This document shows positions 1 through 64,000 of a stretch of DNA of 64,000 bases, one piece after another. The notes beneath the pieces are model-generated. The model worked only from the letters and a program-made list of their open reading frames with translations. It was not told where the DNA came from and ran no database searches. Position 1 is the first letter of the stretch, and each line of letters begins with the position of its first letter. Source of the stretch: a virus; the IMG/VR virus record IMGVR_UViG_3300020048_000036, positions 32,001 to 96,000 of that record; one strand, written 5' to 3'. Position numbers and translations under genes: made by a program.

Positions 1-1
1 T

Positions 2-73
2 TTAGCGGTAAGTAATCTTACAGACCTTATCCAAGTCTTAATTAATGAAGTTTGCGCTTTAAAAACTCCTTAA
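2..73 (+). CDS. 3' end of an upstream structural (tail-fibre-type) gene, cut by the window edge
   Basis: Open frame LAVSNLTDLIQVLINEVCALKTL* ends at TAA 71-73. It resembles the L..(I/L)L..(I/L)...(L/V)C segments of the following proteins. Confidence 0.55.
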   Translation, partial: LAVSNLTDLIQVLINEVCALKTP

Positions 74-86
74 CTAACTAATTACA

Positions 87-980
87 ATGAATTGTACTAC
101 CTGCAATGAGATTACTGGACACGGATGTGAAGAAACACTATGTAACGGAACTGTAAGTTTACCTTGTGATTTCGTAATACCTGCTTCTTGCATAAAAAAC
201 GTAACTGCACTTCCTAATTTGGGAGCATGTGACGAGGTAGCAGGTAACTATGCTTGTACCGATTTGCAAACTATTTTGCTTGCAATTGATGACAAGTTGG
301 AGAATTGTGGTGTAGATACTTATGTTGAAAGTGGGGCTTTGGATGGTGGCACACTTACATTAACGTTAAATGACGAAACAGAAGTAGAGATTGATTTATC
401 TTCTTTGGTAGTAAGTTCTGTTTGGAGTAGGAATAGTGGGGATGGTTTTTTGTTTCCTACAACTTTAACTGATAGCGTTGGTGTTGGTACAAATACCCCT
501 GATTATAAACTTGAAGTTGAAGGTGATTTTCAAACTACTTTTGCACCTAATGTAGATGAGGAATCCTTTATATTAAATGGGGAAAGGTCTCTCACTTTAC
601 CATACACAGGAGCATCTACTCTTGAAGGAGGTATAATTGGTTGTACTAGTACTACAACATCCTCTCTCTTGGCTGTGTTACCTTCGTCAACTAGTCTTAA
701 TTATCAAACAAGTTCTTTAATTGCAGAAATAAGTACATCAGCCGCTATCGGGGCTAACTTAAACTGTACCACAGGTGTAGATATATACTCTCAAATCACC
801 GCAAGCGTAGGTAATACCGCTTCCATGAGAAGTCAAACAGCAACGGATAACACTGTTTTACTTGTAAACCCCACTCAACTTACCATTGATGGTAATGTTG
901 GTTGGTCAGGAACATTCACAACAGGCACAGGAGATACTGTAACAGTACGTAAAGGAATTATAACTAGCGTAGCACCATAA
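87..980 (+). CDS. Putative tail fibre/collar structural protein with Cys-rich N-terminus
   Basis: 297 aa. Cys-rich N-terminus followed by a Thr/Ser/Gly-rich beta-type region with a VGVGTNTPDYKLEVEG repeat-like motif. Sits in the virion gene cluster. Confidence 0.6.
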   Translation: MNCTTCNEITGHGCEETLCNGTVSLPCDFVIPASCIKNVTALPNLGACDEVAGNYACTDLQTILLAIDDKLENCGVDTYVESGALDGGTLTLTLNDETEVEIDLSSLVVSSVWSRNSGDGFLFPTTLTDSVGVGTNTPDYKLEVEGDFQTTFAPNVDEESFILNGERSLTLPYTGASTLEGGIIGCTSTTTSSLLAVLPSSTSLNYQTSSLIAEISTSAAIGANLNCTTGVDIYSQITASVGNTASMRSQTATDNTVLLVNPTQLTIDGNVGWSGTFTTGTGDTVTVRKGIITSVAP

Positions 981-993
981 AACCAAAAACCAA

Positions 994-1152
994 ATGGAAG
1001 AATTTATTATCACGGAAAATTTGCGGAAAGACCTAAGAACCATAATCTTAGCAAGCAAACAAAACGTAGCAACTACGGAAGAGGTAATAAAAATCCTCAA
1101 CCAACTACAACAATTAAAACCAGTTTCTAAAGAGGAATCACCCCAAGTATAA
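994..1152 (+). CDS. Small helical protein, possible tail-fibre assembly chaperone (not in the ORF track)
   Basis: ATG 994 follows the A-rich leader aaaccaaaaaccaa. Encodes MEEFIITENLRKDLRTIILASKQNVATTEEVIKILNQLQQLKPVSKEESPQV (52 aa) and fills the gap between two fibre genes. Confidence 0.65.
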   Translation: MEEFIITENLRKDLRTIILASKQNVATTEEVIKILNQLQQLKPVSKEESPQV

Positions 1153-1161
1153 CAAACCAAT

Positions 1162-1932
1162 ATGAAGTGTAACGGTACATGTAGTCAATCAAAATGCAAC
1201 AAAGGCTGTAATTGCAGTACTTTAGGATGCACACATACACATGCAGATAGTTGTATTACACTATCTAAACCATTGTCTATTTGTGGAACCAAGACATTAC
1301 CTGTAGGTACATCACTTGATATTGTATTGGCTGATACCCTAACAGAACTATGCTCACTCGAAGGTGTAACTGGTCCCGCTGGACCTACTGGTGCAACGGG
1401 AGCCGCAGGAGCTACGGGTGCTACAGGCCCCGCAGGAGCTACGGGTGCTACTGGTGCAGCGGGTGCGGATGGTAGCGAGACTTATGCGCTATTACATTCA
1501 GACCCTACAACAGATACTACTACAAGTTCCAGTTTTACTATACTTAAAACATTTACTTTACCCGCAGGTACTTTTACAAATAATAATGATAAAATAACTG
1601 TAACGACTTTAATTAGAGCAAGCGGAACAGGTAATTCAGGTTTTGTTTTCACTATTGATGGTGGTTCTATTACAAATACAGGCCAACGTCCTGTATCCCC
1701 TTCGCTTACTGAAAAGATGGTACTTGAGATATTCAGGATAAATAACACTACAATCAGGAGTACTTTTTCCGTAATAACCTCTGGTGGTATACATAGTGTA
1801 TATGCAATGGGAAACACAACTGTACCTTCTTTGGCTGTAAACCCTATTGATATACAACTACAAGGTATTGCGACTTCCGTAGGCAGTACTGCAATTTGTG
1901 ATTTGTTAACCGTGGAAATCTACAAACAATAA
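1162..1932 (+). CDS. Collagen-repeat tail fibre/whisker-like protein
   Basis: 256 aa with a Cys-rich N-terminus, a (Gly-X-Y)n run GVTGPAGPTGATGAAGATGATGPAGATGATGAAGADG and a beta-rich C-terminus. Confidence 0.7.
   Translation: MKCNGTCSQSKCNKGCNCSTLGCTHTHADSCITLSKPLSICGTKTLPVGTSLDIVLADTLTELCSLEGVTGPAGPTGATGAAGATGATGPAGATGATGAAGADGSETYALLHSDPTTDTTTSSSFTILKTFTLPAGTFTNNNDKITVTTLIRASGTGNSGFVFTIDGGSITNTGQRPVSPSLTEKMVLEIFRINNTTIRSTFSVITSGGIHSVYAMGNTTVPSLAVNPIDIQLQGIATSVGSTAICDLLTVEIYKQ
1363..1472 (+). repeat. Collagen-like Gly-X-Y coding repeat with an exact DNA duplication
   Basis: ccgcaggagctacgggtgctac occurs twice, 27 nt apart (about 1403 and 1430). Confidence 0.85.
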
Positions 1933-1934
1933 TA

Positions 1935-3293
1935 ATGGCTAATAAGAAGAATATATTAATACTAGAGATAGATGACATTGGTGGTACTTACAACGTATCA
2001 AACGACCCTCTGTTAAGGACACAAGTCATAGTTGTTAAAAGAGCCACAGGAGACACAGGTACATTGACAGGTAGTGTTACTATTGCTGCAACTGCAAATG
2101 TAGAAGATGGTGTTTACTATGAATTTGAACTAGAAGATACATTTGTACTTGGTGCCAATACCTTTAGTATTTTTGGCGAACAACTTACAGCTACCCAATT
2201 ATTAGCTCATCCACAAGTAACCGTAAGGGACAACGGAGCAAGCTATGAAGTATACTTAGAAAACAATGGACTATATGTTACTACAGAAACAGCAAATATA
2301 GCTGATGAAGCAGTAACTTTAGCTAAAATGGCTGACCTTGCAAGAGGTTCTATTATAGTAGGTAACTCTACAACAAGACCTACTGCATACGATGCAAAAA
2401 CATCTGGTAGGATACTTGTAGGGGACGGTACAGACCTTGTTTCAGTTGCGGTAAGCGGTGATGTTACATTGGCTGCAAACGGGGCCGTAACGGTAGCTAA
2501 TGATGCTATAAACAACAACAAACTGGCAAATATTGCCCGTGGTAGTATAAAGGTTGGTGGTACATCTAACGCCCCCACGGATTTGGATGCAAAAACCTCT
2601 GGGTACATTCTTGTAGGTGACGGTACTGATATTAATTCCGTAGCCGTAAGTGGTGATGCAACTTTAAGTTCCGCTGGTGTGGTAACTATTGCAACAGATG
2701 CGATAACAAATACTAAACTTGCCAACATACCAGAAGGTAGTGTAAAAGTAGGAGGAGCATCAAACGCACCAACAGACTTAGACAACTCCACAGCAGGTGC
2801 AATAATCATAGGAAATGGAACAGGTGTAACATCACAAGTACTTACAGGTGCAATTACATTAAATTCAGCAGGTCTAACTACAATAGTGGACGATGCTGTG
2901 GTTACCGCAAAGATACTGGATGATAACGTAACTGTTGATAAAGTTTCTACAAACTTAAAGTATGATACAATAAATTTTGAAGCTAGTTTTGAAACTGGTG
3001 AATTAGGTGCTACAAAGATAAAGCTACCTTTTGGTGGTACTTTAGACAATATTTATGGTTTTGCCACAAAAACAATAGAAGCAACCAACAACGGTACTAT
3101 TACAATAAAGAACCATGCTGGATTAACATTAGCTACAATAACCGCTACCGCAGGTGATATAAGGACTACCGAATATAATAACACCCCTGCTTCAAACAAC
3201 GTATTTGCTATTGAGCAGTATATTACAGTTGAGACAAGCAAAGCTAATGCGGGTGGAAAAGTATTGTTACAGATGAGAGTATTAAAATCATAA
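1935..3293 (+). CDS. Repeat-containing tail fibre/shaft protein
   Basis: 452 aa with three roughly 65-aa internal repeats (A.DA(V/I)...K(M/L)A.(L/I)..GS(I/V).VG....PT..D..T.G.I..G.GT......(S/T)G..TL...G...). Confidence 0.7.
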   Translation: MANKKNILILEIDDIGGTYNVSNDPLLRTQVIVVKRATGDTGTLTGSVTIAATANVEDGVYYEFELEDTFVLGANTFSIFGEQLTATQLLAHPQVTVRDNGASYEVYLENNGLYVTTETANIADEAVTLAKMADLARGSIIVGNSTTRPTAYDAKTSGRILVGDGTDLVSVAVSGDVTLAANGAVTVANDAINNNKLANIARGSIKVGGTSNAPTDLDAKTSGYILVGDGTDINSVAVSGDATLSSAGVVTIATDAITNTKLANIPEGSVKVGGASNAPTDLDNSTAGAIIIGNGTGVTSQVLTGAITLNSAGLTTIVDDAVVTAKILDDNVTVDKVSTNLKYDTINFEASFETGELGATKIKLPFGGTLDNIYGFATKTIEATNNGTITIKNHAGLTLATITATAGDIRTTEYNNTPASNNVFAIEQYITVETSKANAGGKVLLQMRVLKS

Positions 3294-3331
3294 AGAAATA
3301 GAGCAGTTTTAGTTGGTTTTTACTGTTCGGG

Positions 3332-3360
3332 AGGGAGGGTCTTATGGCTCTCCCTTTTTT
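3332..3360 (+). terminator. Rho-independent terminator after the fibre cluster
   Basis: Hairpin agggagggtc-ttat-ggctctccct followed by a T run. Confidence 0.8.
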
Positions 3361-3368
3361 GGTAGGTA

Positions 3369-3415
3369 TTTGTTAGGTTTTTGGTAATGTCAAAACTTTA
3401 TCCTATATTTGTAGC
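3369..3415 (+). promoter_or_regulatory. Bacteroidota sigma70-type promoter for tnpB, with upstream TTTGTTAGGTTTTTGG box
   Basis: TTTG 3380-3383, 20-nt spacer, TATATTTG 3404-3411; the TTG start lies 4 nt downstream. Confidence 0.8.
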
Positions 3416-4525
3416 TTGAAATTATACAAAACATACAAGTTCAAACTCAAACCTAATAAGGCACAAGAGGAGACTTTTGAGTCTTGGGTAAATATTTGTA
3501 GGAAAATATACAATGTCGCATTAGAAGAACGTATCTGGGCTTATAAAACACTAGGTAAATCAATTAGCAAATTTGACCAACATAACCAATTACCTGAAAT
3601 TAAAAAATCATTTCCTTATGTAGGTGAAGTGTACTCGAATACCTTACAAGAAGTATTAGATAGATTAGACAAAGCTTATAAAAGTTTCTTCAAAGGTACA
3701 GGTTTTCCTAAGTTTGCCAAGAAAGGAAAATATAATTCTTTCACTTACAAGAGTCGTTTTACTGTTAAAGAAAAAACCATTAAACTACCCAAAATAGGTG
3801 AGGTCAAATATTTTAATTCCCAACCTATTTTGGGTAAACCAAAAACAGCAACAATAATAAAAGAAAACAACGGTTGGTTCATTTGTATAGTTAGTGAATA
3901 TGAAACAGAATTTAATCAAGTGGTGGTTGATAACCAAAACCCCATCGGATTGGATTGTGGTGTTACAAGGTTTCTAGCATTGTCAAATGGTACTTTTATT
4001 GATTCACCAAATTTCCTTCAAAAAGAGAGCAACAAATTAAGGCTACTCCAAAGAAAACTTAGCCGTCAGGTCAAAGGCTCCAAATCCCGTGATAAGACCA
4101 AGCAACAAATAAGGAAACTTCATAAGAAAATTTCCAATAGGCGTTTGGACTTTTTACATAAAACCTCTACCAACCTTTCCAACAATTTTTCCGCTATTTA
4201 CATGGAAGATTTGAATCTCCAAATAATGCAGGAGAAAGGGTTTAAGGAAGTCAACAAAGGTATGTTAGACAATGGTTTTTACACGTTTAAGGTGTTACTT
4301 GGTTACAAGATGGTTGAACGGGGCAAGCACCTTGGTCTTGTTAATCCCGCTTACACTTCCCAAACTTGTTTCTCTTGTGGCAACGTAGATAAACAATCAA
4401 GGATTTCACAATCAGAATACGTCTGTGTCAAATGTGGTTACATAAGTAACGCTGACACTATGGCTTCAAAGAACATATTGAGCAAGGGCATTGCTCAGGT
4501 TACAAAAGTACAACCGTTAGGTTAA
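3416..4525 (+). CDS. tnpB: TnpB RNA-guided endonuclease (IS200/IS605 family), solo with no tnpA
   Basis: N-terminal KTYKFKLKPN HTH region, RuvC-I PIGLDCG, RuvC-II IYMEDL, zinc ribbon CFSCG...CVKCG and RuvC-III NADTMASKNI. Confidence 0.95.
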   Translation: MKLYKTYKFKLKPNKAQEETFESWVNICRKIYNVALEERIWAYKTLGKSISKFDQHNQLPEIKKSFPYVGEVYSNTLQEVLDRLDKAYKSFFKGTGFPKFAKKGKYNSFTYKSRFTVKEKTIKLPKIGEVKYFNSQPILGKPKTATIIKENNGWFICIVSEYETEFNQVVVDNQNPIGLDCGVTRFLALSNGTFIDSPNFLQKESNKLRLLQRKLSRQVKGSKSRDKTKQQIRKLHKKISNRRLDFLHKTSTNLSNNFSAIYMEDLNLQIMQEKGFKEVNKGMLDNGFYTFKVLLGYKMVERGKHLGLVNPAYTSQTCFSCGNVDKQSRISQSEYVCVKCGYISNADTMASKNILSKGIAQVTKVQPLG

Positions 4526-4580
4526 GGCTGTAACCAGAATCCCGCTTTGGGAGTTGTCAAACACCTGTTTGTTAGTTTTT
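4480..4580 (+). ncRNA. Putative TnpB omegaRNA (3' scaffold plus guide); 5' boundary uncertain
   Basis: Stems gagcaa/ttgctc (4480-4496), ggttaca/tgtaacc (4498-4535) enclosing aacc-gtta-ggtt, and tccc/ggga (4540-4552). IS605-type right end ...agaatccc...gggagttgTCAA at 4560. The predicted guide starts at 4561. Confidence 0.75.
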
Positions 4581-4615
4581 TGGATATTAAAAAATTAAGT
4601 TGTAAATTTACAAGC
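4568..4615 (+). promoter_or_regulatory. Bacteroidota-type promoter of the ring/tail operon
   Basis: TTTGTTAGTTTTTTGG box, TTTG 4579-4582, 20-nt spacer, TAAATTTA 4603-4610; ATG at 4616. Confidence 0.7.
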
Positions 4616-5317
4616 ATGACCGTTGGCGAGTTCATTTCAGATGTGAAAAATTCTGTACGTGCCTTAACTAAGGACGACAGGATAAGTGGTAGGTATATCC
4701 ATAGCCTATCAAAAGACTTTACTAGTTACCTTATTGCAAACAGACCCCTTAGTGACGTGCTTAGGGACAGTTCTATTTTCACTGAAATAACCTGTGTGCA
4801 GATGGATAGGGTTAGGGCTGATATATGTGATATTGCGGAGTTCCGAAAGTGTAACAAGGTAATGAAATCCCACTGTAAACTTCCAGAACTATACAACTCT
4901 TCTATCGGCCCACTTGTAACTTCGGTTATGAATATTACAGGGGACGTGACTTACCAACACCTACGTTCCCCCGCAGACTACACGAATGCACAAAAAAGAA
5001 AGTTCCAAACCGCTACAAGATATTGGTATATATCAAATGGATATTTGTATTTATTAGGTTCTACTAGTGAGAGGGTAACTGTAAGCGGTTTGTTTTTGGA
5101 TGAACTTGAAGCACTTAAATTTTCGGAATGTTCTGATAAAGAAGAAAGCGAATGTGATTCAGTACTTGACTATAAGATAGTTATACCTAACAAATACTTA
5201 TCTACGGTAAAGGAACAAACAATTCAACATATTCTTAATACAAGAAAACGTATTCCCGCAGATGAATTGAGTAACCTTGACTCCAATACAAAAACAAACC
5301 AACAATTAGGCCAGTAA
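4616..5317 (+). CDS. Virion ring/adaptor-type structural protein (crAss-like)
   Basis: Start corrected to ATG 4616 (MTVGEFISDVK) because the track start lies inside the TnpB right end. 233 aa; position before the IHF-like, tubular and stabilisation genes matches crAss-like gene order. Confidence 0.55.
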   Translation: MTVGEFISDVKNSVRALTKDDRISGRYIHSLSKDFTSYLIANRPLSDVLRDSSIFTEITCVQMDRVRADICDIAEFRKCNKVMKSHCKLPELYNSSIGPLVTSVMNITGDVTYQHLRSPADYTNAQKRKFQTATRYWYISNGYLYLLGSTSERVTVSGLFLDELEALKFSECSDKEESECDSVLDYKIVIPNKYLSTVKEQTIQHILNTRKRIPADELSNLDSNTKTNQQLGQ

Positions 5318-5826
5318 TGGAAAAACAAAAGAAAGATTATGGTTTTAACCGAAATGAAAAACCGTGGAAAGGAAAATCTTTAGGGAAGGCAAAAAGCCTA
5401 ATGCAAGATAGGTACTATTCCCACATAGTAAAGAAAAACCCCAAGTTCAAAGGTGTAACCGACACAGAATACAGGAAGATGATGGAAGCCTTTTGGGACA
5501 AGGTAGGGGAGGTATTGATAGGACAACCTAACGGGGTAGTATTGGATGGGTTGGGGTATTTTGCATTCCCATCGTATATAAAAAAAATGAGAAGCCCTGT
5601 AACTAAAAAGATTAACGTAAAGACCAAGGGTTTTGTATATTACCCGCAATTCTTTGGAAAACTGTTCAATAATTTCCATGTTTCAGGATTGTCCCTTGAA
5701 TTGGCAAGGAAATTCCGCAGAAGGTGGTATCACTTGGTAGAAGCAGGACAACCATACAAATTTCATTACAGTACCCTCAAACAACTAGTAGGTGGAAAAC
5801 GGAAATACGCATATAAAATTAAGTGA
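5317..5826 (+). CDS. HU/IHF-like DNA-binding protein
   Basis: Basic 169-aa protein with ...FWDKVGEVLI...GVVLDGLGYF, like the HU/IHF V.L.GFG.F motif. Same position as the IHF-like gene in crAss-like tail modules. Confidence 0.6.
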   Translation: MEKQKKDYGFNRNEKPWKGKSLGKAKSLMQDRYYSHIVKKNPKFKGVTDTEYRKMMEAFWDKVGEVLIGQPNGVVLDGLGYFAFPSYIKKMRSPVTKKINVKTKGFVYYPQFFGKLFNNFHVSGLSLELARKFRRRWYHLVEAGQPYKFHYSTLKQLVGGKRKYAYKIK

Positions 5827-6742
5827 ATTTGTTGCGGATTTAAAAGCCACAAATTGGATTAAAGACAACCCCCACTTACTAGACGAGAACTCCGTTGCTA
5901 GGTGGGTGTATTTGGAACTAAAGGGTTTCGGAAGGAACGTTATGGACCAATATGAAGAGGTTGTGCATATCAACAATTACAGGGGTGAGATGCCAAGTAA
6001 TTTCTCGAACCTTAACCTAGCTGTTTATTGTGAAGTAGATTACGTGGCTGTACCAAAGGGAAGTGACCTTATACGTGTACAAACTAGGTTAATCGGGGAA
6101 AGGATAACTACACCCGAAGTAGTTATATGTGATAGTTGCGCCCCAATTGAAGACTCGAACAGATGCCCCGAAAGAGTAGTTGAAAACCTATATGTAGAGG
6201 GAACACAAACCAACATACACTACAAGAATTTTAATTACGTAAAAATTGGCCCTGACCTTATAAGGAACCATTGCTCCCCCGATTGTTTTAACAGGGGGAT
6301 AAAAAACAGCCCTTATGAAATCAATATCAAGGGAACTACAATATACGCTACTGGTTTTAAACAAGGCTCTTTATATACACGTTACTACGGTACACCAATG
6401 GATGAAGATGGTCTACCAGTTATCCCAATTACCCCAAATAGGTTTCTTGAAAAGTACCTTGAAGTATATGTAAAGCGCAGGATACTAGAGGATGCAATGT
6501 TATCTAAGGATGCTACAAATTTGCAGTTTATGTATCAGGCTTTTATGCAACAAGAATTAGACCTATACAACAAAGCCAAAAACGACACATCAAAAATAGA
6601 TATGGTAGCGTTGTATAAAGCTGTAGGCCACAACAGAAAACGCATGAACAAATATTATATCAATCTAGGCACAATAAAGTCAAACGCACAAAACAGTTAC
6701 CAAGGATACCTTGGAGCAGCATTTAACCCCAACTCATTTTAA
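5792..6742 (+). CDS. Tail tubular/ring protein (P22 gp4-like position)
   Basis: 316 aa, C-terminal LYTRYYGTPMDEDGLPVIP motif, directly upstream of the stabilisation gene. Confidence 0.55.
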   Translation: MENGNTHIKLSEFVADLKATNWIKDNPHLLDENSVARWVYLELKGFGRNVMDQYEEVVHINNYRGEMPSNFSNLNLAVYCEVDYVAVPKGSDLIRVQTRLIGERITTPEVVICDSCAPIEDSNRCPERVVENLYVEGTQTNIHYKNFNYVKIGPDLIRNHCSPDCFNRGIKNSPYEINIKGTTIYATGFKQGSLYTRYYGTPMDEDGLPVIPITPNRFLEKYLEVYVKRRILEDAMLSKDATNLQFMYQAFMQQELDLYNKAKNDTSKIDMVALYKAVGHNRKRMNKYYINLGTIKSNAQNSYQGYLGAAFNPNSF

Positions 6743-6745
6743 GGC

Positions 6746-9700
6746 ATGAAAAAAGAACGCAGTGTTGGGGGGGGTAAGTTAGGTATGATGAAAGATGCAC
6801 ATATAACATCTTTGCAAGAAACCATGTACGTACATGCCCTGAACTCAAATACCCAAGGTCAGGACGGAGATAGTTTGAACTTACAAAACGAGGAAAGTAA
6901 CGTGCTTTGTCATAACTTTCCAGCAGGTTTCAAAGTCGTAGGACCACCGTTAAAGGACATTACCGCAGATAGGACTTATTTCTTCCTGACAGACCCACTT
7001 ACACGTAGGTCTGAAATCGGCTATATAAGCGAACTTGAAAACCCAATATCCTTTACAGACACAATAGAGAATACTTGTGGTTGCGGTGTGGAAACTGTTT
7101 TGGCAGAAGGTCTTGAAAACATACAACAAACAGAGACTTGTACATATGTATCTATCATAAGGGACTATGTGTGTGAGTTTGGAGTACCAAACCTATGTCT
7201 TAACTTTGATATAAACTATCCAATCTCAAGTTCCCTAAAAGACGAGAAATGTGGGAAGGTAATATATTTTGCCGATGACCTTAACAATGACCGCAGGTTA
7301 GAACTTGATAACATAAACCAATATTATAGGACTACAATATTCTGTTCAGATGACCCCGAAGCAGTAGATTATGTAGAGAACTGTGATTGTGGGATGATAG
7401 AAGAAGACATTTGTATCAACTGTGACAAAATGTCTATTAGGCCAAAGAACCTACCGCTTAAAATTGAGGTAGAGGGATTGGTTAACGGTGGTCAAGTACG
7501 TCATGGGCAGTACGCATTTTTTGCGGGATACTCTGATTCCCAAGGAAACATGATTACAGAATACCTTACTACAACAAGTAAGACTTCCGTAAAAGACCCA
7601 AACAAAAACACCTATGAGCAACCCGAACTGGATGCAATAACAAATTTTTCTATTAAACTATCTTTAGATGGATTAGACCCCTCATTTGAATACTACAAGG
7701 TAGGTATATTACAAAGGAGTTCTGTTGATGGGGCAAATGGTTATTTTGAACTAGGGGTATTCCCCACCTCAACCAAACAAGTGTTGTTTTCGGGCGAACA
7801 GAACCTTGAACGTATAACAATAAATGAACTAGTTCAGCAATTTCCCGAATACCTACGTTCCAAGACTTTGGTTCAGGCAAACAACATGCTTTTCCGTTCA
7901 AACCTAGAAGCAAGACCTGACCCAAACCTACAGCCCGTAGTTAACTTCATGGGGCACTTTGCCAAATGGAGAACCGTAATTGCGGACGAGGAAATATATG
8001 AAACCGCAAGGGGAACGGCAAACTATGTAGGTTACATGAGGGACGAGGTAGTTCCTTTTGGAATAAGGTTTATTACCAATACAGGGTACAAAACCCCTCT
8101 TTATCCACTTATCCCAAGAGCACCGAAAGATAGCGATGAGTTGTTCACGGGAGAAATCAATTTAGAGGCACAGATAGACACGATAAACGATTATCTAGCC
8201 ATAGACCCACCAACAACATTATCTCCTAGTGATGGGTGGCTATTTGACGTTAGGTCAATAATTGATTCGGGCAACGGTGTGTGTACCACGGAGGAAAGGA
8301 ACAAAAAGTGGCAATTTTACAATACGGCTACCAATGACAGTACTATCTTTCAAACTTGCGGGGAAGACAGGGAAACAGAGATAAAAGAACTTACAAGGAA
8401 CTGTACCAATAGTAGTTTTATAGAAATTGACCTTTCTACTCCAATAGTACTTGACAATTTTAATGAAGATGATACCTTTACAACTTTCATACAATATTTG
8501 CGAGATAACGAAGGTAACTATCCCGATGACCTATCTGATTTACAAGATGCACTAGATGCTGCCGATACTGATGGGACTTCAACATATCTAGGTTGTTGTG
8601 ACCCAACTGATTTATTTGATGAAAATACTTGCGGTGACCCAATAGTACAGGAAAGGGGTGATGTAAGTCTAACTAAACTCTCACCAGTTGTATCTACAGA
8701 TAGACTTGTTTTTAATACAGAGTACCATCCTTGTAATTCAGGATTATATACAAGGCTAAAAACAACCACTACTTGTGATGAAGTATATACTTTTAGGTTT
8801 ACCGAAGAGGGAACGGCTGTAGGTAAGAACATAAATTTGTTTGATGGAGTTAGTGCTTTTATTTATGACCCTTGGTTACAAGGTACTGTAGGTTGTGGAC
8901 CTCCTTTTTATTTTGAGCGTAACCCTAACTATTTAAACAACAACAGCCCCACTTCCGCATTAGCTATAACACCTATACCCTATGATAATGTAACTGGTAG
9001 TTTTTATATCATACCACAATTTCCCCCTTTAGCCACAGCAACATCAGATACAACTTTAATAACAAATATAGATTCAGAAGTACCAGCAGGAGTGGTAGTT
9101 CTGCAAAACAAAGAGGGTATATGTACTGACCCAGATTATTCCTTTTTAAGTAAATGTCCTCCTAGTGTAACTGGTTACTTTAACCAAAAAGTACATAAAA
9201 ATGCTATTTGGTACAAGGTGAATAATATTGATACGGATTTTATAATGATTAACATAAGTAAAATAACTAATCCAAATGAGTTGTTTTATGATTGCTTAAC
9301 TTATTCAAACCATTTACGCCTTAGTGTATTTGATTCCACATTTTCATTAATAAACGATACTAGCGGAAACAAACTGGCAAAATTAGTACCTATAAAAGAG
9401 TTTGGTACAGTGTTACCCTCTGATGGGGTTTATTGTGTAGATACAAGGGGTTTGGAGACTATTTATTTTGCAGTTGATTCCCCTATTATACAAGGAGGTA
9501 TAGACCCACTTAACAAGTATCTTTCTGGAACACAGAACTGTATTAGTTTTGGGGTACATGAACCCCTTATAAATAGGGTTGTAGTTGAGTTGGAAAACCC
9601 TGCAATGAACGGTATTTTCAACTTGGAAATAACTAGGAGCTGTATTTATTCAGCAGCTTGTGAAGTACCTGTTAGTGATAAACTCAAATGTAATCCTTAT

Positions 9701-55573: not shown

Positions 55574-55762
55574 CTAAGCTCTCTCAACTTCATACAAAAA
55601 TCCCTCCTTAAAGAAATCTAAAAGTGTTATCCAATACAATAACTTCCAATGCGGAGCGTAATTAACCAATCTAGGTGTACTACAAATACGGTACACTTGG
55701 TATGGACCTACTACAACTAGTTCCCCAATTTTATGTTCGTGTGAATCTGATTTGAGTGTCAT
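55574..55762 (-). CDS. Hypothetical protein
   Basis: 62 aa. Confidence 0.45.
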   Translation of the reverse strand: MTLKSDSHEHKIGELVVVGPYQVYRICSTPRLVNYAPHWKLLYWITLLDFFKEGFLYEVERA

Positions 55763-55921
55763 TTTTCTGTAGATTTTGTATATGTTTCTAATTTTAAAAG
55801 ATAATCTGAATTTAATAGTTCTTCGCTACTTACCTTTTCCATCCAATGTATTTCACCGTCTATTTGAACCCCCACTTTAGTATCTGAGAGTTCATATCCC
55901 ATATCAGGGGGAAGTTTCCAT

Positions 55922-56410
55922 TTAAGATTGTCCATCAATATAATTTTCCAATGCGTTAACTAATTTTGTCCTTTCTTCTACCAAAGGTAATACTTTTTTT
56001 AACAAAATCCAAACTTTCGGGAATTTATTTTCTATTTCGCTGAATTTATGGCAATCTAAAAGATAATCAAAACTTGTGTGTTCCTGCCAAGTAAGGTAAA
56101 CTACATTCTCATCTATTGTAGCTACAGATTTGTGGTTTCGCTTAGGTAACAAGTGAGCGATGTTAAGTCGACTTGGATTAAATATTTTTTCACCTGTGGT
56201 GCTGTAAGGATTTTTAGACAGTATTAATATATGTTTGTCAAAGAATTGGTTTAGTTCTTCCTTATTCCCCTTTGGTTTAGGCTTACTTTTAATCTTAGAC
56301 TGTTGTATAGGTTTAAAAGTTTTTGAAGCGCAAAAATCACATTTGCCTTTACTAAAGATAAACTTTTCTTCACCACATTCGCTACAGATTTTCCTTTTGC
56401 GTTGTATCAT
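55922..56410 (-). CDS. Zinc-finger plus HNH-like nuclease
   Basis: CSEC...CDFC followed by AHLLPK...ENVVYL...EH..FD. Confidence 0.6.
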   Translation of the reverse strand: MIQRKRKICSECGEEKFIFSKGKCDFCASKTFKPIQQSKIKSKPKPKGNKEELNQFFDKHILILSKNPYSTTGEKIFNPSRLNIAHLLPKRNHKSVATIDENVVYLTWQEHTSFDYLLDCHKFSEIENKFPKVWILLKKVLPLVEERTKLVNALENYIDGQS

Positions 56411-56559
56411 ACTTCTTTTTCAATAACTCCTTCTTCAACCAAGTTACTAAAAATCTTTGTTGCTGCTACCTCGGCCCAATCTAAACTAGTCCTATAATGC
56501 TTTTCATGTTCGGTCTTAATCCTGTTCCGAATTAAGTCTATTATTTCTTGTTTTTTCAT
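56407..56559 (-). CDS. 50-aa hypothetical protein (not in the ORF track)
   Basis: MKKQEIIDLIRNRIKTEHEKHY...; 4-nt overlaps on both sides. Confidence 0.6.
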   Translation of the reverse strand: MKKQEIIDLIRNRIKTEHEKHYRTSLDWAEVAATKIFSNLVEEGVIEKEV

Positions 56560-56783
56560 TCTTCCAATTTTACAACGTTAGTGGGTAGTAACCTATATTC
56601 TTGTTTCTTACCTCGTAAATCCAGTTCCCCATCCTCGTAGCATTTAATATACACTTCTGTATCCTTATCAAAATTATGGGTCTTAAATTTGTGTGATAAC
56701 TTATTCTCCTCTAGTTCAGATACTTTTTTCCGAACTACAAATACAGGCATTCCTTTCTTGATTACTTTTATAATTTCGCTCAT
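56556..56783 (-). CDS. Hypothetical protein
   Basis: 75 aa. Confidence 0.55.
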   Translation of the reverse strand: MSEIIKVIKKGMPVFVVRKKVSELEENKLSHKFKTHNFDKDTEVYIKCYEDGELDLRGKKQEYRLLPTNVVKLEE

Positions 56784-57229
56784 ACAGTCAAATTTAAACA
56801 GTTTACAATCAATTTAGTTATGGTTAAGAAATCAATAGATTCTTGTAGTTCCTTATCTGTTTCCCAAATACCATCAGATGGCTCACCTTCATCGTTTACA
56901 AAAGGCTCATAACATAATTGCCAAATCTTTTTACCTTTACTAAAACTTTTGGTAATATAGAATAAAGCATCACCGTCCATCTTTTTTATATCCCCATCTA
57001 AGTAAGGTTCCCACCCTAACTCAAGTTCCATAAATTCAAGGAACTCTTGAGTTGTTAATGGTTTAGGATTTTCCACGAAAACCACATCGGACATTGAAGT
57101 CACATAACTAAAAGGTAAACAAGCAAAATCACCTTCTTTATTTGGAAGACGTAAAATGTAATATACCTTATCATCAACCCACACTGGTTGTCCTTCTTTC
57201 AATTCTACTTCTTTGGTTTGTTTTTTCAT
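56780..57229 (-). CDS. Hypothetical protein
   Basis: 149 aa. Confidence 0.6.
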   Translation of the reverse strand: MKKQTKEVELKEGQPVWVDDKVYYILRLPNKEGDFACLPFSYVTSMSDVVFVENPKPLTTQEFLEFMELELGWEPYLDGDIKKMDGDALFYITKSFSKGKKIWQLCYEPFVNDEGEPSDGIWETDKELQESIDFLTITKLIVNCLNLTV

Positions 57230-57693
57230 AATTCTTGTTTTAGTTTTTGTGTTGCCCTAAAAGTAAGGCTCTTTACGCTACTCACTGTTATTTTTAAAAT
57301 ACTTGCTGTTTCTATTAAATTAAAATCATACACATACATAAGTAAAATACAATGTCTTTGTTTTGTAGTTAGTTTACCTATGGCTTTTCTAACCTTATCG
57401 GAAAATACAAAATCATTCTTATAGTAACCTAATTCCTCCTCATAACCTTTTAGCTCTATTATTTCAGGTGAGCCACTTCTATAGTATTTCCTGTAATCGT
57501 CAATTGTGATATTTTTTAAGGTAGTAACCAATAAGGACAATAAATTACCGTTACCATCTATATTATCAATATTCCTAAAAACCCTATAATAGGTTTCTTG
57601 TACCAAATCCTCCACATCGTTCCTATTGGTAAACTTTTTTGCCAAAGAAGTCAGTTTCCCCTTATTCTTTAATAACCTCTCTGTTACATCCAT
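57226..57693 (-). CDS. ECF-type RNA polymerase sigma factor
   Basis: Region 2 DVEDLVQETY...KNITIDDYRK; region 4 LTTKQRHCILL...ETASILKITVSSVKSLTFRA. Confidence 0.88.
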   Translation of the reverse strand: MDVTERLLKNKGKLTSLAKKFTNRNDVEDLVQETYYRVFRNIDNIDGNGNLLSLLVTTLKNITIDDYRKYYRSGSPEIIELKGYEEELGYYKNDFVFSDKVRKAIGKLTTKQRHCILLMYVYDFNLIETASILKITVSSVKSLTFRATQKLKQEL

Positions 57694-57697
57694 GTTT

Positions 57698-57729
57698 CAA
57701 AGGTACAACTATTTTACGTAATTTCCAAA
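57698..57729 (-). promoter_or_regulatory. Canonical promoter of the sigma gene (leaderless)
   Basis: TTTG 57726-57729, 20-nt spacer, TACCTTTG 57698-57705, then 4 nt and ATG. Confidence 0.8.
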
Positions 57730-57730
57730 T

Positions 57731-57770
57731 AAAAAAGAAGGATTAGAAAAATAAATTCCCAATCCTTCTT
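57731..57770 (-). terminator. Terminator after groEL
   Basis: - strand agaaggattgg...ctaatccttct followed by a T run. Confidence 0.8.
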
Positions 57771-57803
57771 CCTCACATTAACAATCAATAAACAAGCATA
57801 CAA

Positions 57804-59668
<1,865 letters not shown>

Positions 59669-59683
59669 GTTTTATGGTTTTAG

Positions 59684-59878
59684 TTATTCAATATAAAGTT
59701 GAACATCATTTAAATCACCTCCAGTCATATATTGACCAAATAGTTTACTATGTTCATCCATAGCATCATAATCCGAGTTATATACCTTTTCCATTAATTT
59801 ATGGAATTTAGGAACTAGTTCATTTGGTACTAGATACCAATGTCCTGCATCATCTTGTAGTGCTTTTACTTTTTGCAT
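59684..59878 (-). CDS. Hypothetical protein
   Basis: 64 aa. Confidence 0.55.
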   Translation of the reverse strand: MQKVKALQDDAGHWYLVPNELVPKFHKLMEKVYNSDYDAMDEHSKLFGQYMTGGDLNDVQLYIE

Positions 59879-59883
59879 GGTAT

Positions 59884-60042
59884 TTATTTTTTAAGGTTGT
59901 TTTTTATACGTAGAATTAGTGCAATAGGCCAAATAGGAAGCCAAATTAACATCTCTCTCCAAGGAACAGGTTTATCGTAAATGTATATTGCATATGAAAT
60001 GAATAGAGCACCTAACAACAAATACAATAATAAGTATTCCAT
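59884..60042 (-). CDS. 52-aa two-TM membrane protein (not in the ORF track)
   Basis: MEYLLLYLLLGALFISYAIYIYDKPVPWREMLIWLPIWPIALILRIKNNLKK. Confidence 0.6.
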   Translation of the reverse strand: MEYLLLYLLLGALFISYAIYIYDKPVPWREMLIWLPIWPIALILRIKNNLKK

Positions 60043-60044
60043 AA

Positions 60045-60614
60045 TTATCTTGTTGAGTTTAACAATTCACATGCAGTCATAACAGTTGTTAAGTCTATTA
60101 ATGCTACACCAAATTCACTAGGTAAAATGTAACCTTCGCAATATATAATCCAATCACCTTCCGTTTCTTTTATACTGTATGGAAAATCAGGGTCTTTGTT
60201 ATAAAAGTAATCTCCTTTTAAGTAAAAACCTTCTTTCTCCAACATACTGGTTACTTCCGCAAAAGTATGTTTCTTACGTTTATTTATAAGTTCTTCTAGC
60301 TGTTTAGCTGTTGTGTTTTCTACAATAACATCTATTTCTGCTTCTATTGCAGGTAGGTCAAACTTAGTTTTTGGTTGTAGAAAATTTACTACTGTTTGAT
60401 ATTCATTTTTAAAATAAAAACTTAGTTTCCAATCTAGTTCTTTTTTCTCAAGATTTTTCGCAAAAATAACAACAGGCTCATCAGCATTAATTGTAGCACC
60501 AATTAGAATATCGTTTTTTAGATGTCTACCATTTTCCCAAGTAAAACCCATATTTACAAGTATAGGTATCAGGATATTGTATTCTTCTTCTGTTTGTACT
60601 AGTATTGGTTTCAT
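60045..60614 (-). CDS. Hypothetical protein
   Basis: 189 aa. Confidence 0.6.
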   Translation of the reverse strand: MKPILVQTEEEYNILIPILVNMGFTWENGRHLKNDILIGATINADEPVVIFAKNLEKKELDWKLSFYFKNEYQTVVNFLQPKTKFDLPAIEAEIDVIVENTTAKQLEELINKRKKHTFAEVTSMLEKEGFYLKGDYFYNKDPDFPYSIKETEGDWIIYCEGYILPSEFGVALIDLTTVMTACELLNSTR

Positions 60615-60820
60615 ATTTTAATTTTTAGAAATTTTTGCCAAAAGTTTGTTATGTAATCATTGTATTTTACAAAAACAATTAAAGATACTACTAATGCCAC
60701 AGGCCAAACGGCTGCATAAAAAATAAATTCCCAAAGATATATTTCTTCTTTTTGGAAGTACTTAGCTAATAGACCCGTAAGTACCCCTACTAAAATATAC
60801 AAAATAACATACAGAGTCAT
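60611..60820 (-). CDS. Small two-TM membrane protein
   Basis: LYILVG...WPVALVV pattern. Confidence 0.6.
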   Translation of the reverse strand: MTLYVILYILVGVLTGLLAKYFQKEEIYLWEFIFYAAVWPVALVVSLIVFVKYNDYITNFWQKFLKIKI

Positions 60821-60846
60821 AATATTAATTTTTGATTTCGTTTCAA

Positions 60847-60878
60847 CAAAGATAAGACATTAAATTGAAATTACCAAA
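60847..60878 (-). promoter_or_regulatory. Canonical Bacteroidota promoter
   Basis: TTTG 60875-60878, 20-nt spacer, TATCTTTG 60847-60854. Confidence 0.75.
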
Positions 60879-61397
60879 CTATTTGTCCAATAAATCAAGA
60901 ACTTCTTTTGCAATCTGCAATTTACGAAGTTTTGAAAGAGGTTGTAGTTTCTTATCCAATATCTCATGCCTTTCTTCGGGGTATAAGTTACCTGTTAACA
61001 TAAGGCTTATAGAATAATCCCCAAGCGGTTTAACATAATGTAATGTATGTGTATTCCGCATTTCATAATAAGAACCTTTAGCTATAATAAACCTACTAAT
61101 ATCTTTCAATTTGTAGGCTTCCTCCGAACTTATTTCATTTTCGCAATAAGTAATACCCATCTCATACTCACCTTTCAATATCTTGAAAGCAGCTTCCCAC
61201 CTGTGTTTATGGTACAAACAGGGAGCATCAGTATGGTGTATCTTATGGATAAACAACCTATGATTATCGTCATATTGCAACCATAAACGCTCTACTCTTG
61301 GTGGGTAATAATCCACGTCAAGTGTTTGCCACAAGGAAAGGTTACTTAACAATTTTCGTAAGTCTTCCTTTTCTATTTGTTTTAGTAGTTCTATCAT
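60879..61397 (-). CDS. Metal-binding cupin-fold protein
   Basis: YHKHRW...ILKGEY.E and GSYYEM...LHYV match cupin motifs 1 and 2. Confidence 0.65.
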   Translation of the reverse strand: MIELLKQIEKEDLRKLLSNLSLWQTLDVDYYPPRVERLWLQYDDNHRLFIHKIHHTDAPCLYHKHRWEAAFKILKGEYEMGITYCENEISSEEAYKLKDISRFIIAKGSYYEMRNTHTLHYVKPLGDYSISLMLTGNLYPEERHEILDKKLQPLSKLRKLQIAKEVLDLLDK

Positions 61398-62113
61398 GCT
61401 AATAATTTTAAACCATCAGTACACTTTGGACAAGTATAGTTTTTTCCAAATCTTTTATCAATTACTATATTAGTACCGCTGCAACAACTATAATCTTGTG
61501 TTTTATCAATTGTAGGTTTAGGTTGTTCTGATAGTAATACTTTAACCTTACCCAAAAGGAAACAATACCTATGTTTTCTTGTTCTAGGGAGCCATACCCC
61601 TCTTAAATCTTTGGTTGCACCTCTAGGGTTTACCCTACCATCTTCACAATAAAAATCAGTTTTACTATCCGTCAAACCATAATACTTAAAATTACAAACT
61701 TGGTATATACTCCCCACATGCCTACTATCATCAGCTAGTGTTATTACTGCATTTACATCTTTACTTTTTAACATTTTCATACTGTTTCCCAACAAATAAC
61801 TAGTAGCGTTACTACCATTTAATTCAGGCAACATACAAAGTCTGCTCAACTCCAAAACACTTTGGTCACTATTTTCTAAACCGAACCAACTTTTCATAGC
61901 AGAAATACCTTGTGGGTTACTGAAAGTAGAACAACCTACTAAGTTTTCCCCTAAGTATAACCCATAACAGTACTTAGCAAAAAATTTTGCATCAGCTAAA
62001 TAATGGTATTGTTTTATAAAAGCGTAAGCGATAGGTTTTTCAATTTCTTTTATTTGAAAAATATCCTTAGCTTTTACCTCTCTGTTTTTAAATTTGTGTA
62101 TTAGTTCTTCCAT
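61394..62113 (-). CDS. mom: Mom-like GNAT-fold DNA adenine modification enzyme with C-terminal Cys cluster
   Basis: FIKQYHY, LELSRL, VITLADD..HVGSIYQVCNFKYYG and RTRKHRY motifs. Start corrected to ATG 62113. Confidence 0.75.
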   Translation of the reverse strand: MEELIHKFKNREVKAKDIFQIKEIEKPIAYAFIKQYHYLADAKFFAKYCYGLYLGENLVGCSTFSNPQGISAMKSWFGLENSDQSVLELSRLCMLPELNGSNATSYLLGNSMKMLKSKDVNAVITLADDSRHVGSIYQVCNFKYYGLTDSKTDFYCEDGRVNPRGATKDLRGVWLPRTRKHRYCFLLGKVKVLLSEQPKPTIDKTQDYSCCSGTNIVIDKRFGKNYTCPKCTDGLKLLA

Positions 62114-62117
62114 ACCC

Positions 62118-62149
62118 CAAAGATACTTATTTAATTCTACAATTCCAAA
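62118..62149 (-). promoter_or_regulatory. Canonical promoter of the mom-like gene (leaderless)
   Basis: TTTG 62146-62149, 20-nt spacer, TATCTTTG 62118-62125, then 4 nt and ATG. Confidence 0.8.
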
Positions 62150-62162
62150 CTTTCCGCAAAAT

Positions 62163-62200
62163 AAAAACCCCACCAAAACAAATAATCATTCTGATGGGGC
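62163..62200 (-). terminator. Terminator after the RNR operon
   Basis: - strand ccccatca...tggtgggg followed by ttttt. Confidence 0.65.
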
Positions 62201-62221
62201 TATTTCGCAAAGAACCTACAA

Positions 62222-62473
62222 TCAATAACGCTTAATCAAATTACCTTCCTTATCAATCACAATATTCACCCTTAACAAATTATCCAAATACATTATAACC
62301 CTATTATTTATTATTGCTTGGATGTGAGGAAATAAAGAGTTGTAGAATAAAGGAAAGTTTTTGGCGAAATCAGGAAATTCTAATTTACCTTTACCTTCCT
62401 TGAAAAATAGGTAGTAAATATCTAAGGTTAACTCGTTCTTATTAAGTTGTAGTATATAACTTTGTCTGTCCAT
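62222..62473 (-). CDS. Hypothetical protein
   Basis: 83 aa. Confidence 0.55.
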   Translation of the reverse strand: MDRQSYILQLNKNELTLDIYYLFFKEGKGKLEFPDFAKNFPLFYNSLFPHIQAIINNRVIMYLDNLLRVNIVIDKEGNLIKRY

Positions 62474-62475
62474 AA

Positions 62476-64000
62476 CTAGTTGTTTGGTAGCTCACATTGA
62501 CCTCCGCTACAAGCTATAGCAGCATAATCAGATATGGCTTTGTATTCAGGTTTGTTAAGAATCTTGGAGAAATCCACAGTCCTGAAAGTCCTACTTATAA
62601 CTTGCCATTTATGCCACAAATGTACATCTTTCAAACAATAAACCATTTTTTGTAGGTCATTTTGTAGATAGTTTTTCGCAAACTTCTTAACTCTCCGCAA
62701 CCAATCTTTCCTCAACAACAATTGCTCTCTTGTACCTACAAGTTTAAAATCCCTATTCGCAATAGCATTACATGCCTCCCACAAATCACCGTTAAAGTAA
62801 TTAAGACCATCTACAATAAGCCCTGATGCAAATAATACTCCTTCACCATACTTTTCTATAAGTTCTTGACTATTTAAAACAGAGGTAAAGGGTGCTTGAA
62901 CATAGTCCTTATCTCCAAACAAGGTCAAGAAAGACACAGCGGTAAAAGAATCACTATGCTTAAATACATAATCAGTAACCTCTTTAGGATTATCCAAAAT
63001 TACAGTATTGGAAACATTGTGCATTGAGTGAGGGGTATAACTTCTCTCGTATACTTTTCCAGGTTTAACCCAATGTTCTTGAACCAACTTGATAAGTTCC
63101 AAGTGTTTAATACCCTGCATATCCTCTTTGTACATTGTACCTTCCTTATTTTCGCAAGGGACAAAAACAACATAATCCGTATGACTTGCAGACCATTTAC
63201 TTTCTTCCAAAACCTCTGGCATATTCTCCACAAGCCATTTAGCAGTGTCACTTTCCTTGTTTATCTGCATTACCCTAAAATAACGTTGGCTATGTTCTGG
63301 GTGGATACCTGATGAAGTCATTGCAAGTACAGAACTGTTACCACTAGGTTTTACACAAGTAAGACGTGCGGAAGCATTAATATTGATAATTTTAGCTACC
63401 TCTTCGTTGGTTTCCTTAATAATATTTACACCTTCCTCTAACAATTCCGCATTGAACAATTCAGGACAGGTCATCCAGCCTGTAATAGACACCCCAAGTA
63501 AAGCCTCCCCTGCTACTATGTCCTCTGTTTGTTCGTTTATGTGGGGGAAAGTAGTGTAACCTGCTTGAAGTGTTCCTAAAATAGAACCCATCCTACAAGC
63601 CTGTTTAAATTTATCCTTATTTAAACGACCTTTACTATCCAATAAAGAACTTGCTACTATTTCTACAAGGTTACAGAATTGAAAACAAGCATAACGTAAA
63701 TCCTTGATTTTCAAGTAGAAATCCATAGAAATTTCAAAGCATGGATTAAGAATTACATATGAGGAATCAGTGAAGACAAAGCCAATATCATTATCCCCCT
63801 CGTTCATTCGTAGTATTTCCTCAAATTGCTCTTTGGTAAATTGTCCCCTAATAAGACCAACTGAATTGTTACTACGTGCCCTCCACGGATACTTTGTTCT
63901 CCAATCCCCTGTTTTAGCAAAAAGGAGTTCCTTATCCTCAAAGTCCATAATTATATTCATCGCTGACCTTCTTACACCTCCGCTAAGAACTGCATCAGAA
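62476..64000 (-). CDS. Ribonucleotide reductase catalytic subunit (monomeric class II-like), 5' part outside the window
   Basis: The frame stays open to the edge (SDAVLSGGVRRSAM). Motifs LNPCFEI, CNLVEI, TCVKPSGN and C-terminal CSGGQCELP. Confidence 0.9.
   Translation of the reverse strand, partial: SDAVLSGGVRRSAMNIIMDFEDKELLFAKTGDWRTKYPWRARSNNSVGLIRGQFTKEQFEEILRMNEGDNDIGFVFTDSSYVILNPCFEISMDFYLKIKDLRYACFQFCNLVEIVASSLLDSKGRLNKDKFKQACRMGSILGTLQAGYTTFPHINEQTEDIVAGEALLGVSITGWMTCPELFNAELLEEGVNIIKETNEEVAKIININASARLTCVKPSGNSSVLAMTSSGIHPEHSQRYFRVMQINKESDTAKWLVENMPEVLEESKWSASHTDYVVFVPCENKEGTMYKEDMQGIKHLELIKLVQEHWVKPGKVYERSYTPHSMHNVSNTVILDNPKEVTDYVFKHSDSFTAVSFLTLFGDKDYVQAPFTSVLNSQELIEKYGEGVLFASGLIVDGLNYFNGDLWEACNAIANRDFKLVGTREQLLLRKDWLRRVKKFAKNYLQNDLQKMVYCLKDVHLWHKWQVISRTFRTVDFSKILNKPEYKAISDYAAIACSGGQCELPNN

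Follow-up and report, generated by a model that had tools for sequence, protein, structure and literature searches.

TYCGCAA, an over-represented and regionally strand-polarised heptamer of a virus genome, as a possible Chi-like site

Chi, KOPS (FtsK-orienting polar sequences) and primase words steer DNA-tracking enzymes and are known almost only from a few model bacteria. The Chi sequence is GCTGGTGG in E. coli, AGCGG in B. subtilis, GAAGCGG in S. aureus and GCGCGTG in L. lactis, and KOPS is GGGNAGGG. In 1997, Tracy and colleagues reportedly found E. coli Chi to lie within GT-rich islands. Among phage primase sites, that of T7 is 5'-GTC-3' (extended to GGGTC, TGGTC or GTGTC), those of T4 are GTT and GCT, and that of SP6 is GCA; the nick consensus words of phages T5 and tf are confined to one strand. 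Here, we describe the heptamer TYCGCAA (complement, 5'-TTGCGRA-3') in the virus record IMGVR_UViG_3300020048_000036, a sequence of 130,638 bp with 36% G+C whose ends overlap by 46 bp, so that it closes on itself. The window, the whole 64,000-nt stretch that had received a first-pass annotation by eye, comprises bases 32,001-96,000 of this record. A directional DNA-tracking process best accounts for this asymmetric, density-selected word, whose placement ignores coding and whose orientation holds over tens of kilobases, and we tentatively read it as a Chi-like site for a host enzyme of the AddAB/RecBCD type. A literature search found no paper on TYCGCAA.

The window contains 62 copies of TYCGCAA, 49 on the plus strand and 13 on the minus strand, whereas dinucleotide-preserving shuffles gave 6.7 +/- 2.6 copies on both strands together (maximum of 100 shuffles, 13). 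The first-pass annotation had tallied about 47 and about 12 copies, close to the exact count; the copies whose positions it listed are real, with each coordinate one base too low. The binomial p for a 48:14 strand split is 1.7e-5, and the window split is slightly more extreme. Across the whole genome, 123 copies were counted (78 on plus and 45 on minus), and the Markov test that the annotation had called for bore out the enrichment, with 17, 25 and 54 copies expected at orders 1, 2 and 3, respectively. Total density is roughly constant along the genome (0.85-1.04 per kb; overall, 0.94 per kb). Under the order-2 model, no 5- to 8-mers of the genome are more over-represented than TYCGCAA and the sub-words that overlap it: TTCCGCA was observed 74 times (10 expected), TCCGCAA 67 times (10.5 expected) and TTCGCAA 56 times (14 expected), and the most enriched 5-mer is TGCGG (218 versus 84 expected). 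All seven positions are specific; single-base variants occur near expectation or are at most 3-4 fold enriched, without polarity, and a weak extension of the consensus gives tTTYCGCAAaaa. Second among the over-represented 7-mers of the genome is CTACAAC/GTTGTAG (100 versus 29 expected), which lies mostly in genes, with a preference for the sense strand (58:33) but no polarity; as part of the same observation, CCTACAAC is present in several intergenic regions.

The excess does not depend on coding. Copies occur in all three frames (49 sense, 57 antisense and 17 intergenic in the genome) and draw on rare CG codons, since 33 of the 191 GCG alanine codons (17%) and 10 of the 84 CGC codons fall within them; both the intergenic copies and the GC-rich codons had been remarked upon in the first pass. 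When synonymous codons were permuted within each gene, 28.1 +/- 4.2 copies were obtained on the plus strand and 19.6 +/- 3.0 on the minus strand versus 78 and 45 observed, and 14.0 +/- 2.7 versus 49 in the polar stretch defined below. The enrichment thus persisted under the shuffle that had been set beforehand as the one expected to abolish a spurious signal. In the whole-genome open reading frame (ORF) set, the commonest arginine codon is AGG (40%), CG-containing codons are rare, and the observed/expected ratio of CpG is 0.63. A promoter or terminator was rejected as the origin of the word because only 17 of the 123 copies are intergenic (about 11 expected), orientation ignores genes, and no Bacteroidota -7 box stands in register; the literature holds no known promoter word for the crAss virion RNA polymerase.

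The orientation of the copies is strongly biased in one part of the genome, which is described by the following features.

Window 9778..63157 (genome 41,778-95,151), plus strand: polar domain, a 53-kb stretch with 49 copies on plus and 9 on minus.
Window 1..9777, minus strand: left flank of the polar domain, with no copy on plus and 4 on minus (1021, 4833, 5832 and 7980).
Window 39249..39255, plus strand: example copy TCCGCAA, just beyond the convergent gene junction and among the first of the minus-gene block.
Window 62675..62700, plus strand: copy pair 19 nt apart (TTCGCAA at 62675 and TCCGCAA at 62694), antisense within the ribonucleotide reductase (RNR) gene.
Window 22902..22930, both strands: head-to-head pair, TCCGCAA on minus at 22902 and TTCGCAA on plus at 22924.
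Window 62476..64000, minus strand: 3' part of the RNR gene (whole gene, genome 94,476-96,704), which holds the last plus copy of the polar domain (window 63,151 = genome 95,151).
Genome 97735-98451 (L005:7735-8451): two non-coding stretches at the polarity switch.

A change-point scan placed the best arc at genome 41,778-95,151 (log-likelihood ratio 11.07, equalled by 1 of 200 label permutations). This polar domain makes up about 41% of the genome, and the remainder is split 29:36. Within the domain the minus strand is at background (9 copies versus 5.3 expected); outside it, both strands are 4-5 fold enriched. The domain covers parts of both gene arms, namely plus-strand genes for giant virion proteins and the replication genes on the minus strand. 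The plus arm (10.7-71.1 kb) encodes terminase, portal, capsid and four proteins of 1,748-2,123 aa. The minus arm runs from the convergent junction at 71.1 kb to 130.6 kb and on across the closing overlap to 10.3 kb, and encodes a DnaB-like helicase, family A DNA polymerase (PolA), RNA ligase, GroEL, a Mom-like protein, RNR, a PD-(D/E)XK nuclease, a zinc-ribbon/DUF6371 protein and a bacterial-type RecA. Across the 71.1-kb junction, TTCGCAA in the polar domain stands at 9:0 in plus genes and 13:2 in minus genes. In the window, the minus-gene block (>39.1 kb) has 28:4 and the plus-gene block 21:9, in agreement with the tallies of about 27 versus 4 and about 20 versus 8 made by eye. The transcription-independent k-mers with the strongest strand bias in the domain are sub-words of TYCGCAA. 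The first-pass annotation had held that polarity does not flip with gene direction and that the word is a directional signal at the DNA level. Within the polar domain (49:9) the first claim stands, and the signal is independent of transcription, present in all frames and resistant to codon shuffling; however, its direction is only regional, the rest of the genome being enriched on both strands.

Two further candidates were rejected on these counts. AACCCA, a second polar word (37:10 in the domain), is neither enriched nor phased with TYCGCAA. A strand bias imposed by type III restriction, as for EcoP15I in T7, does not account for a word that is about nine-fold enriched, forms head-to-head pairs and is enriched in both orientations outside the domain.

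The flanks of the polar domain lean the opposite way (3:6 at genome 30-40 kb and 3:10 at 96-111 kb). The left border falls within the gene for the 2,123-aa protein, and the switch on the right lies between genome 95.2 and 98.5 kb, just past the window end. One of the two non-coding stretches at this switch contains a tRNA-like gene (97,932-98,005, minus strand), which ARAGORN reported as tRNA-??? with the four-base anticodon gtag. No iterons were found at genome 96.5-99.5 kb, and GC skew is dominated by transcription, so that it located no origin. Orientation diverges near 40 kb, and it converges near 96-98 kb, where the tRNA-like gene lies in non-coding DNA, a geometry that would suit another kind of motor guide: a signal like KOPS or SRS (SpoIIIE recognition sequences) that loads or orients a translocase during genome entry, segregation or packaging, or else a polar pause site. 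The length, degeneracy, density and polarity of TYCGCAA also resemble those of KOPS and SRS. However, a non-exhaustive scan of about 40 proteins revealed no Xer gene, dif site or FtsK/SpoIIIE-like gene; a border lies within a gene and borders shift between relatives; and nothing ties the word to the terminase region at 11-15 kb. We consider a motor guide of this kind quite unlikely.

TYCGCAA is carried by one clade of uncultured relatives, whose PolA is 59-67% identical to that encoded here.

Window 47618..49642, minus strand: PolA gene; its copies of TYCGCAA are antisense to the gene, and two are conserved in place in the relative L051.

The plus:minus counts are 1:7 in L051 (0.84 expected per strand), 1:7 in L054 (0.95 expected) and 11:5 in L052 (1.2 expected). 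In the phage of run SRR23967303 (L006, L053 and L056; TerL 72% and RNR 80% identical), the word is only about 2.4-fold enriched, and in G001-G005 (about 60% TerL identity) it occurs at the level of the reversed-word control. The nearest cultured phages, namely Leptolyngbya phage Lbo-JY46, Cellulophaga phages phi17:2 and phi4:1 and crAss-like phages, are 23-33% identical in TerL or PolA; the enrichment is lacking in Lbo-JY46, Cellulophaga phi17:2 and phi14:2, Flavobacterium Fpv3 and Bacteroides DAC15. The motif, for which the first-pass annotation had proposed a search in relatives, therefore recurs in a single clade but not in distant relatives or cultured phages. Searches of IMG/VR with PolA and with the relative P0128 found no close relatives. 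Orientation relative to PolA is the same in L051 and L054 as here. Eight of the 32 alignable sites are conserved in place in relatives, versus 10% for control CG-containing 7-mers; the sites turn over at a kept density, which suits a density signal better than a set of fixed sites. Upstream of PolA, window 50336-50885 (genome 82336-82885) is 93.5% identical to L051:1-553, whereas adjacent genes are 70-76% identical; this stretch may have been exchanged recently or may be a conserved element. An inserted gene of 411 aa comes after it in L051, and the start of this gene matches genome 114841-114942.

The composition around the copies is also asymmetric. The 3' side of TYCGCAA is A+C-rich over 100-150 nt (0.55), and the 5' side is slightly G+T-rich over 100 nt (A+C 0.48); the contrast has a paired t of 5.0, and the baseline of 0.51 is regained by 200 nt. 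On the complementary strand, a G+T-rich tract thus lies 5' of TTGCGRA, with a G+T fraction of 0.55 against 0.49. Copies showed the asymmetry whether they were sense or antisense and whether they lay in the polar domain or beyond it, and it was absent for the reversed word and for ten near-variants, save weak effects in two of them. We regard it as evidence of moderate weight. Immediately adjacent to the word, the flanks are T-rich on the 5' side and A-rich on the 3' side. Since the G+T-rich 5' flank of TTGCGRA is the side on which RecA would be loaded, the asymmetry supports a Chi-like reading.

TTGCGRA is a short, asymmetric, G/T-rich word that is over-represented and frame-independent within genes (123 copies versus 17-54 expected), like Chi; it is 7 nt long, one position being degenerate, and shares a GCG(G) core with the AddAB Chi sites of B. 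subtilis and S. aureus. A Chi-like site was ranked first on the strength of this form, the G+T-rich flank, the RecA encoded by the phage, the evasion lifestyle described below, the published excess of Chi in phages and the AT skew.

Genome 8963-9976 (outside the window), minus strand: bacterial-type RecA gene (TIGR02012, E 2.7e-89).

The RecA gene is adjoined by genes for a DnaQ-like exonuclease and a GIY-YIG protein, and the same arrangement is seen in relatives. Lambdoid phages without RecBCD inhibitors carry an excess of Chi (Bobay et al. 2013, PMC3784561), and the density of Chi in coliphages is 0.2 per kb (PMC3784561). Bacteroides has AddAB, and as of 2010 its Chi was not known in B. fragilis (PMC2887965). 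A Bacteroidota host for the phage described here is suggested by the Porphyromonas-type PG0870 N-terminal domain of one of its proteins and by its crAss-like head genes. To our knowledge, no Chi sequence has been reported for any Bacteroidota since 2010.

Under the Chi-like reading, a helicase-nuclease, most likely host AddAB or RecBCD, would enter at a DNA end, track along the phage DNA and recognise TTGCGRA in single-stranded form. On meeting the word from its 3' side, the enzyme would stop degrading the DNA and begin to load RecA onto the G+T-rich tract that lies 5' of the word. Broken or restricted phage DNA would then escape exonucleases, and its ends would feed recombination-dependent repair or replication, aided by the phage RecA. 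The one-way orientation in 41.8-95.2 kb would mean that ends there are nearly always processed in one direction, which would fit forks that run from about 96-98 kb to the left and have TTGCGRA on their leading strand, like Chi in bacteria; elsewhere, ends would arise in both directions and both orientations would be retained. At four-fold sites, AT skew on the plus strand is weakly raised within the polar domain in both gene orientations. This excess of A over T would make the minus strand, which carries TTGCGRA, the leading strand, although the fit is weak.

Several observations weigh against a Chi-like site. The case is built from phage DNA, whereas Chi is defined by over-representation and replichore skew in the host chromosome. 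The polarity is confined to about 41% of the genome, where a rolling-circle or fixed-end model would predict more, and the density of about 1 per kb exceeds that of Chi in coliphages. The flank statistic tops those of 400 frequent control 7-mers but is not far outside their spread, and the unrelated TAAATTT comes close; the AT skew is confounded with gene class. An equivalent over-represented or polar word was sought in G001, G002, G003, G005 and Lbo-JY46, and none was found; the lack of a replacement in these sister lineages would be odd if Chi mimicry were a general strategy of the group. Finally, L052 and L056 show the opposite orientation in the syntenic sigma-to-cpYpsA region, so that domain borders move between relatives. 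The orientation switch of L052 sits in coding DNA.

The genome is also under exceptional selection against palindromes. The 4-mers GATC, CCGG and CGCG are absent (281, 148 and 63 expected, respectively), as are 30 of the 64 six-base palindromes, and many others occur at less than 10% of expectation. CTTAAG (46 expected), GAATTC (37), AGATCT (31), TCTAGA (31), GATATC (27) and TTCGAA (23) do not occur at all, and GGTACC (3 versus 43 expected) and ATGCAT (2 versus 31) nearly never. This avoidance is common to the relatives that carry TYCGCAA, whereas in G001 and G002 far fewer sites are avoided and in Lbo-JY46 hardly any. The phage is evading host nucleases through its own sequence, and the loss of palindromes in the same clade as TYCGCAA points to a lifestyle of sequence-level evasion that fits the Chi-like reading.

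Such strong word-level selection raises the question of whether TYCGCAA has any function of its own. Its excess could be a by-product of selection on short words (palindrome avoidance or CpG context) or of a context-specific mutation bias, with the polarity arising from strand composition. TCCGCA, TTCGCA and TCGCAA are each one mutation away from the forbidden TCCGGA, TTCGAA and TCGCGA, higher-order Markov models take up much of the excess (90 copies expected at order 4), and the plus strand of the polar domain is somewhat A-rich. However, each forbidden palindrome would release no more than about 3-23 copies, to be shared among 18 neighbour words, which cannot supply some 100 extra copies of a single word, and single-base variants are neither comparably enriched nor polar. 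Palindromes are strand-symmetric and so generate no polarity, and composition yields a strand ratio of at most about 1.4:1 against the 5.4:1 observed. The excess outlasts codon shuffling, and the flank asymmetry is specific to TYCGCAA. A by-product is therefore highly improbable in our view.

Spacing bears on a different explanation. The first-pass annotation had proposed a signal about every 1.3 kb, at an Okazaki-scale spacing; the distances between copies in the polar domain are exponential (coefficient of variation 0.91; Kolmogorov-Smirnov p 0.89), with no Okazaki-like regularity. Their mean of 1.1 kb is nonetheless on the Okazaki scale, and TYCGCAA could mark lagging-strand priming, in which a phage primase, perhaps the zinc-ribbon/DUF6371 protein together with the DnaB-like helicase, would start primers at 5'-TYCGCAA-3' and copies would gather on the lagging-strand template wherever fork direction is fixed.

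Window 40801..41814, minus strand: DnaB-like replicative helicase gene, a component of the replisome that the phage encodes.
Genome 111,010-111,918: gene for the Zn_ribbon_16 + DUF6371 / PG0870-Nterm protein.

With PolA, these two proteins give the phage its own replisome, and the independence of polarity from transcription is in keeping with priming. The T-rich 5' and A-rich 3' flanks would allow a primer to begin with pppG across from the central C, the 3' bases being cryptic as they are in T7. Relative to G001, which lacks the word, the zinc-ribbon protein diverges fastest among the replication proteins (40% identity versus 58-60% for PolA and TerL). Known primase sites, however, are trinucleotides or at most pentamers, whereas TYCGCAA has seven specific positions and a weaker flank preference, for which we know of no precedent at a primase site. 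Across 59% of the genome, enrichment is equal on the two strands, and the A+C-rich tract lies on the fork-proximal side, where it has no known role. The zinc-ribbon/DUF6371 protein, a candidate primase only, matched no primase or Toprim family, no solved relative was found for it, and its 40%-identical ortholog is present in G001. By the weak AT skew, TYCGCAA would lie on the template of the leading strand, where a priming signal does not belong. Together with the exponential spacing, these points make priming unlikely. Of the three mechanisms offered in the first pass, a Chi-like site thus fits best; a primase site is weakened by the spacing, the 7-8 nt specificity and the G001 ortholog, and a KOPS-like signal for packaging or genome entry has found no support.

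A short asymmetric consensus held on one strand over a long stretch is also what strand-specific nick sites of the T5, phiKMV and Pseudomonas phage tf type would produce, if replicating or mature DNA were cut on a single strand, at or close to TYCGCAA, by a phage nickase. Nuclease genes of the HNH and T5orf172 (GIY-YIG-like) kinds are present in the genome, and the gain of a nickase would fit the restriction of the word to one clade. However, known nicked phages have 5-15 sites against the 123 copies found here, both strands carry the word outside the polar domain, and no nuclease gene was found whose presence tracks TYCGCAA. Nicking is thus very unlikely to be the cause.

A target for Mom-like modification was rejected as a general cause. 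The phage encodes one such protein, as follows.

Window 61394-62176, minus strand: Mom-family protein gene (PF25680, E 4.5e-26), which overlaps an upstream ORF of 172 aa.

No homolog of this gene was found in any of the relatives, and it is missing from the syntenic RNR-GroEL interval of L054, which carries TYCGCAA. The Mom context of phage Mu is S-A-S-N-Y, and TYCGCAA does not fit it. Phage DNA was present in aquatic and freshwater metagenomes; Logan contigs over genome 90-110 kb were fragmented, at about 7x depth, and gave no information on ends, nicks or variants. A TnpB protein search of the genome contigs for a link to the host gave one match, to an unrelated Asgard archaeon.

Present about once per kb and sharply oriented within one domain, TYCGCAA is a concrete candidate for a site read by host AddAB/RecBCD or by the phage replisome. 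It is possible, though on balance doubtful, that TYCGCAA belongs to a directional DNA-tracking system new for phages, being either the first Chi of an uncultured freshwater (probably Bacteroidota) host lineage or the site of a phage-encoded heptamer-specific primase or helicase-nuclease. If this were true, orientation domains would in either case show which way replication or end processing runs in crAss-related phages, with borders that shift between close relatives, and would offer a handle, taken from sequence, on phages whose replication is poorly understood. Together with the near-total loss of palindromic restriction sites, the word shows how far word-level selection can act on a phage genome.

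Comparison with known systems places TYCGCAA closest to Chi. DNA uptake sequences (USS/DUS, the uptake signal sequences and DNA uptake sequences) occur about once per kb on both strands without polarity and are shared with a naturally competent host; the density of 0.94 per kb matches theirs, but the 49:9 domain would not be expected. EcoP15I sites (CAGCAG) in T7 are likewise an asymmetric word kept in one orientation in a phage genome, by which type III restriction is evaded; however, CAGCAG shows no over-representation there, and its bias goes with the one direction in which T7 is transcribed, whereas TYCGCAA ignores gene direction. The nick sites of T5, phiKMV and tf share an asymmetric consensus confined to one strand over long phage stretches, but TYCGCAA has ten-fold more copies, lies on both strands outside the domain and is known from sequence alone. 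KOPS and SRS, the guides of FtsK and SpoIIIE, are similarly degenerate 7-8-mers whose orientation switches at defined points; in contrast, no dif, Xer or FtsK-like gene was found here (about 40 proteins, in a non-exhaustive scan), polarity is limited to one domain, and the word has no G-rich run. Phage primase sites are strand-specific, have a kb-scale mean spacing and are read on a single-stranded template by a zinc-ribbon domain, and this phage has its own helicase and zinc-ribbon protein; known sites, however, are 3-5 nt long and are not ten-fold over-represented, whereas TYCGCAA has seven positions plus flanks, random spacing and copies on both strands over most of the genome. Chi and TYCGCAA differ in that the latter has been seen only from the phage side, is regional in its polarity, is denser, and is missing from sister lineages without a replacement word. 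Each, however, is a short word, asymmetric and rich in G and T, that has a GCG(G) core and is strongly enriched in genes in all frames, with an orientation bias independent of transcription, a G+T-rich 5' side and a turnover of sites at constant density, and the phage that carries TYCGCAA has a RecA of its own.

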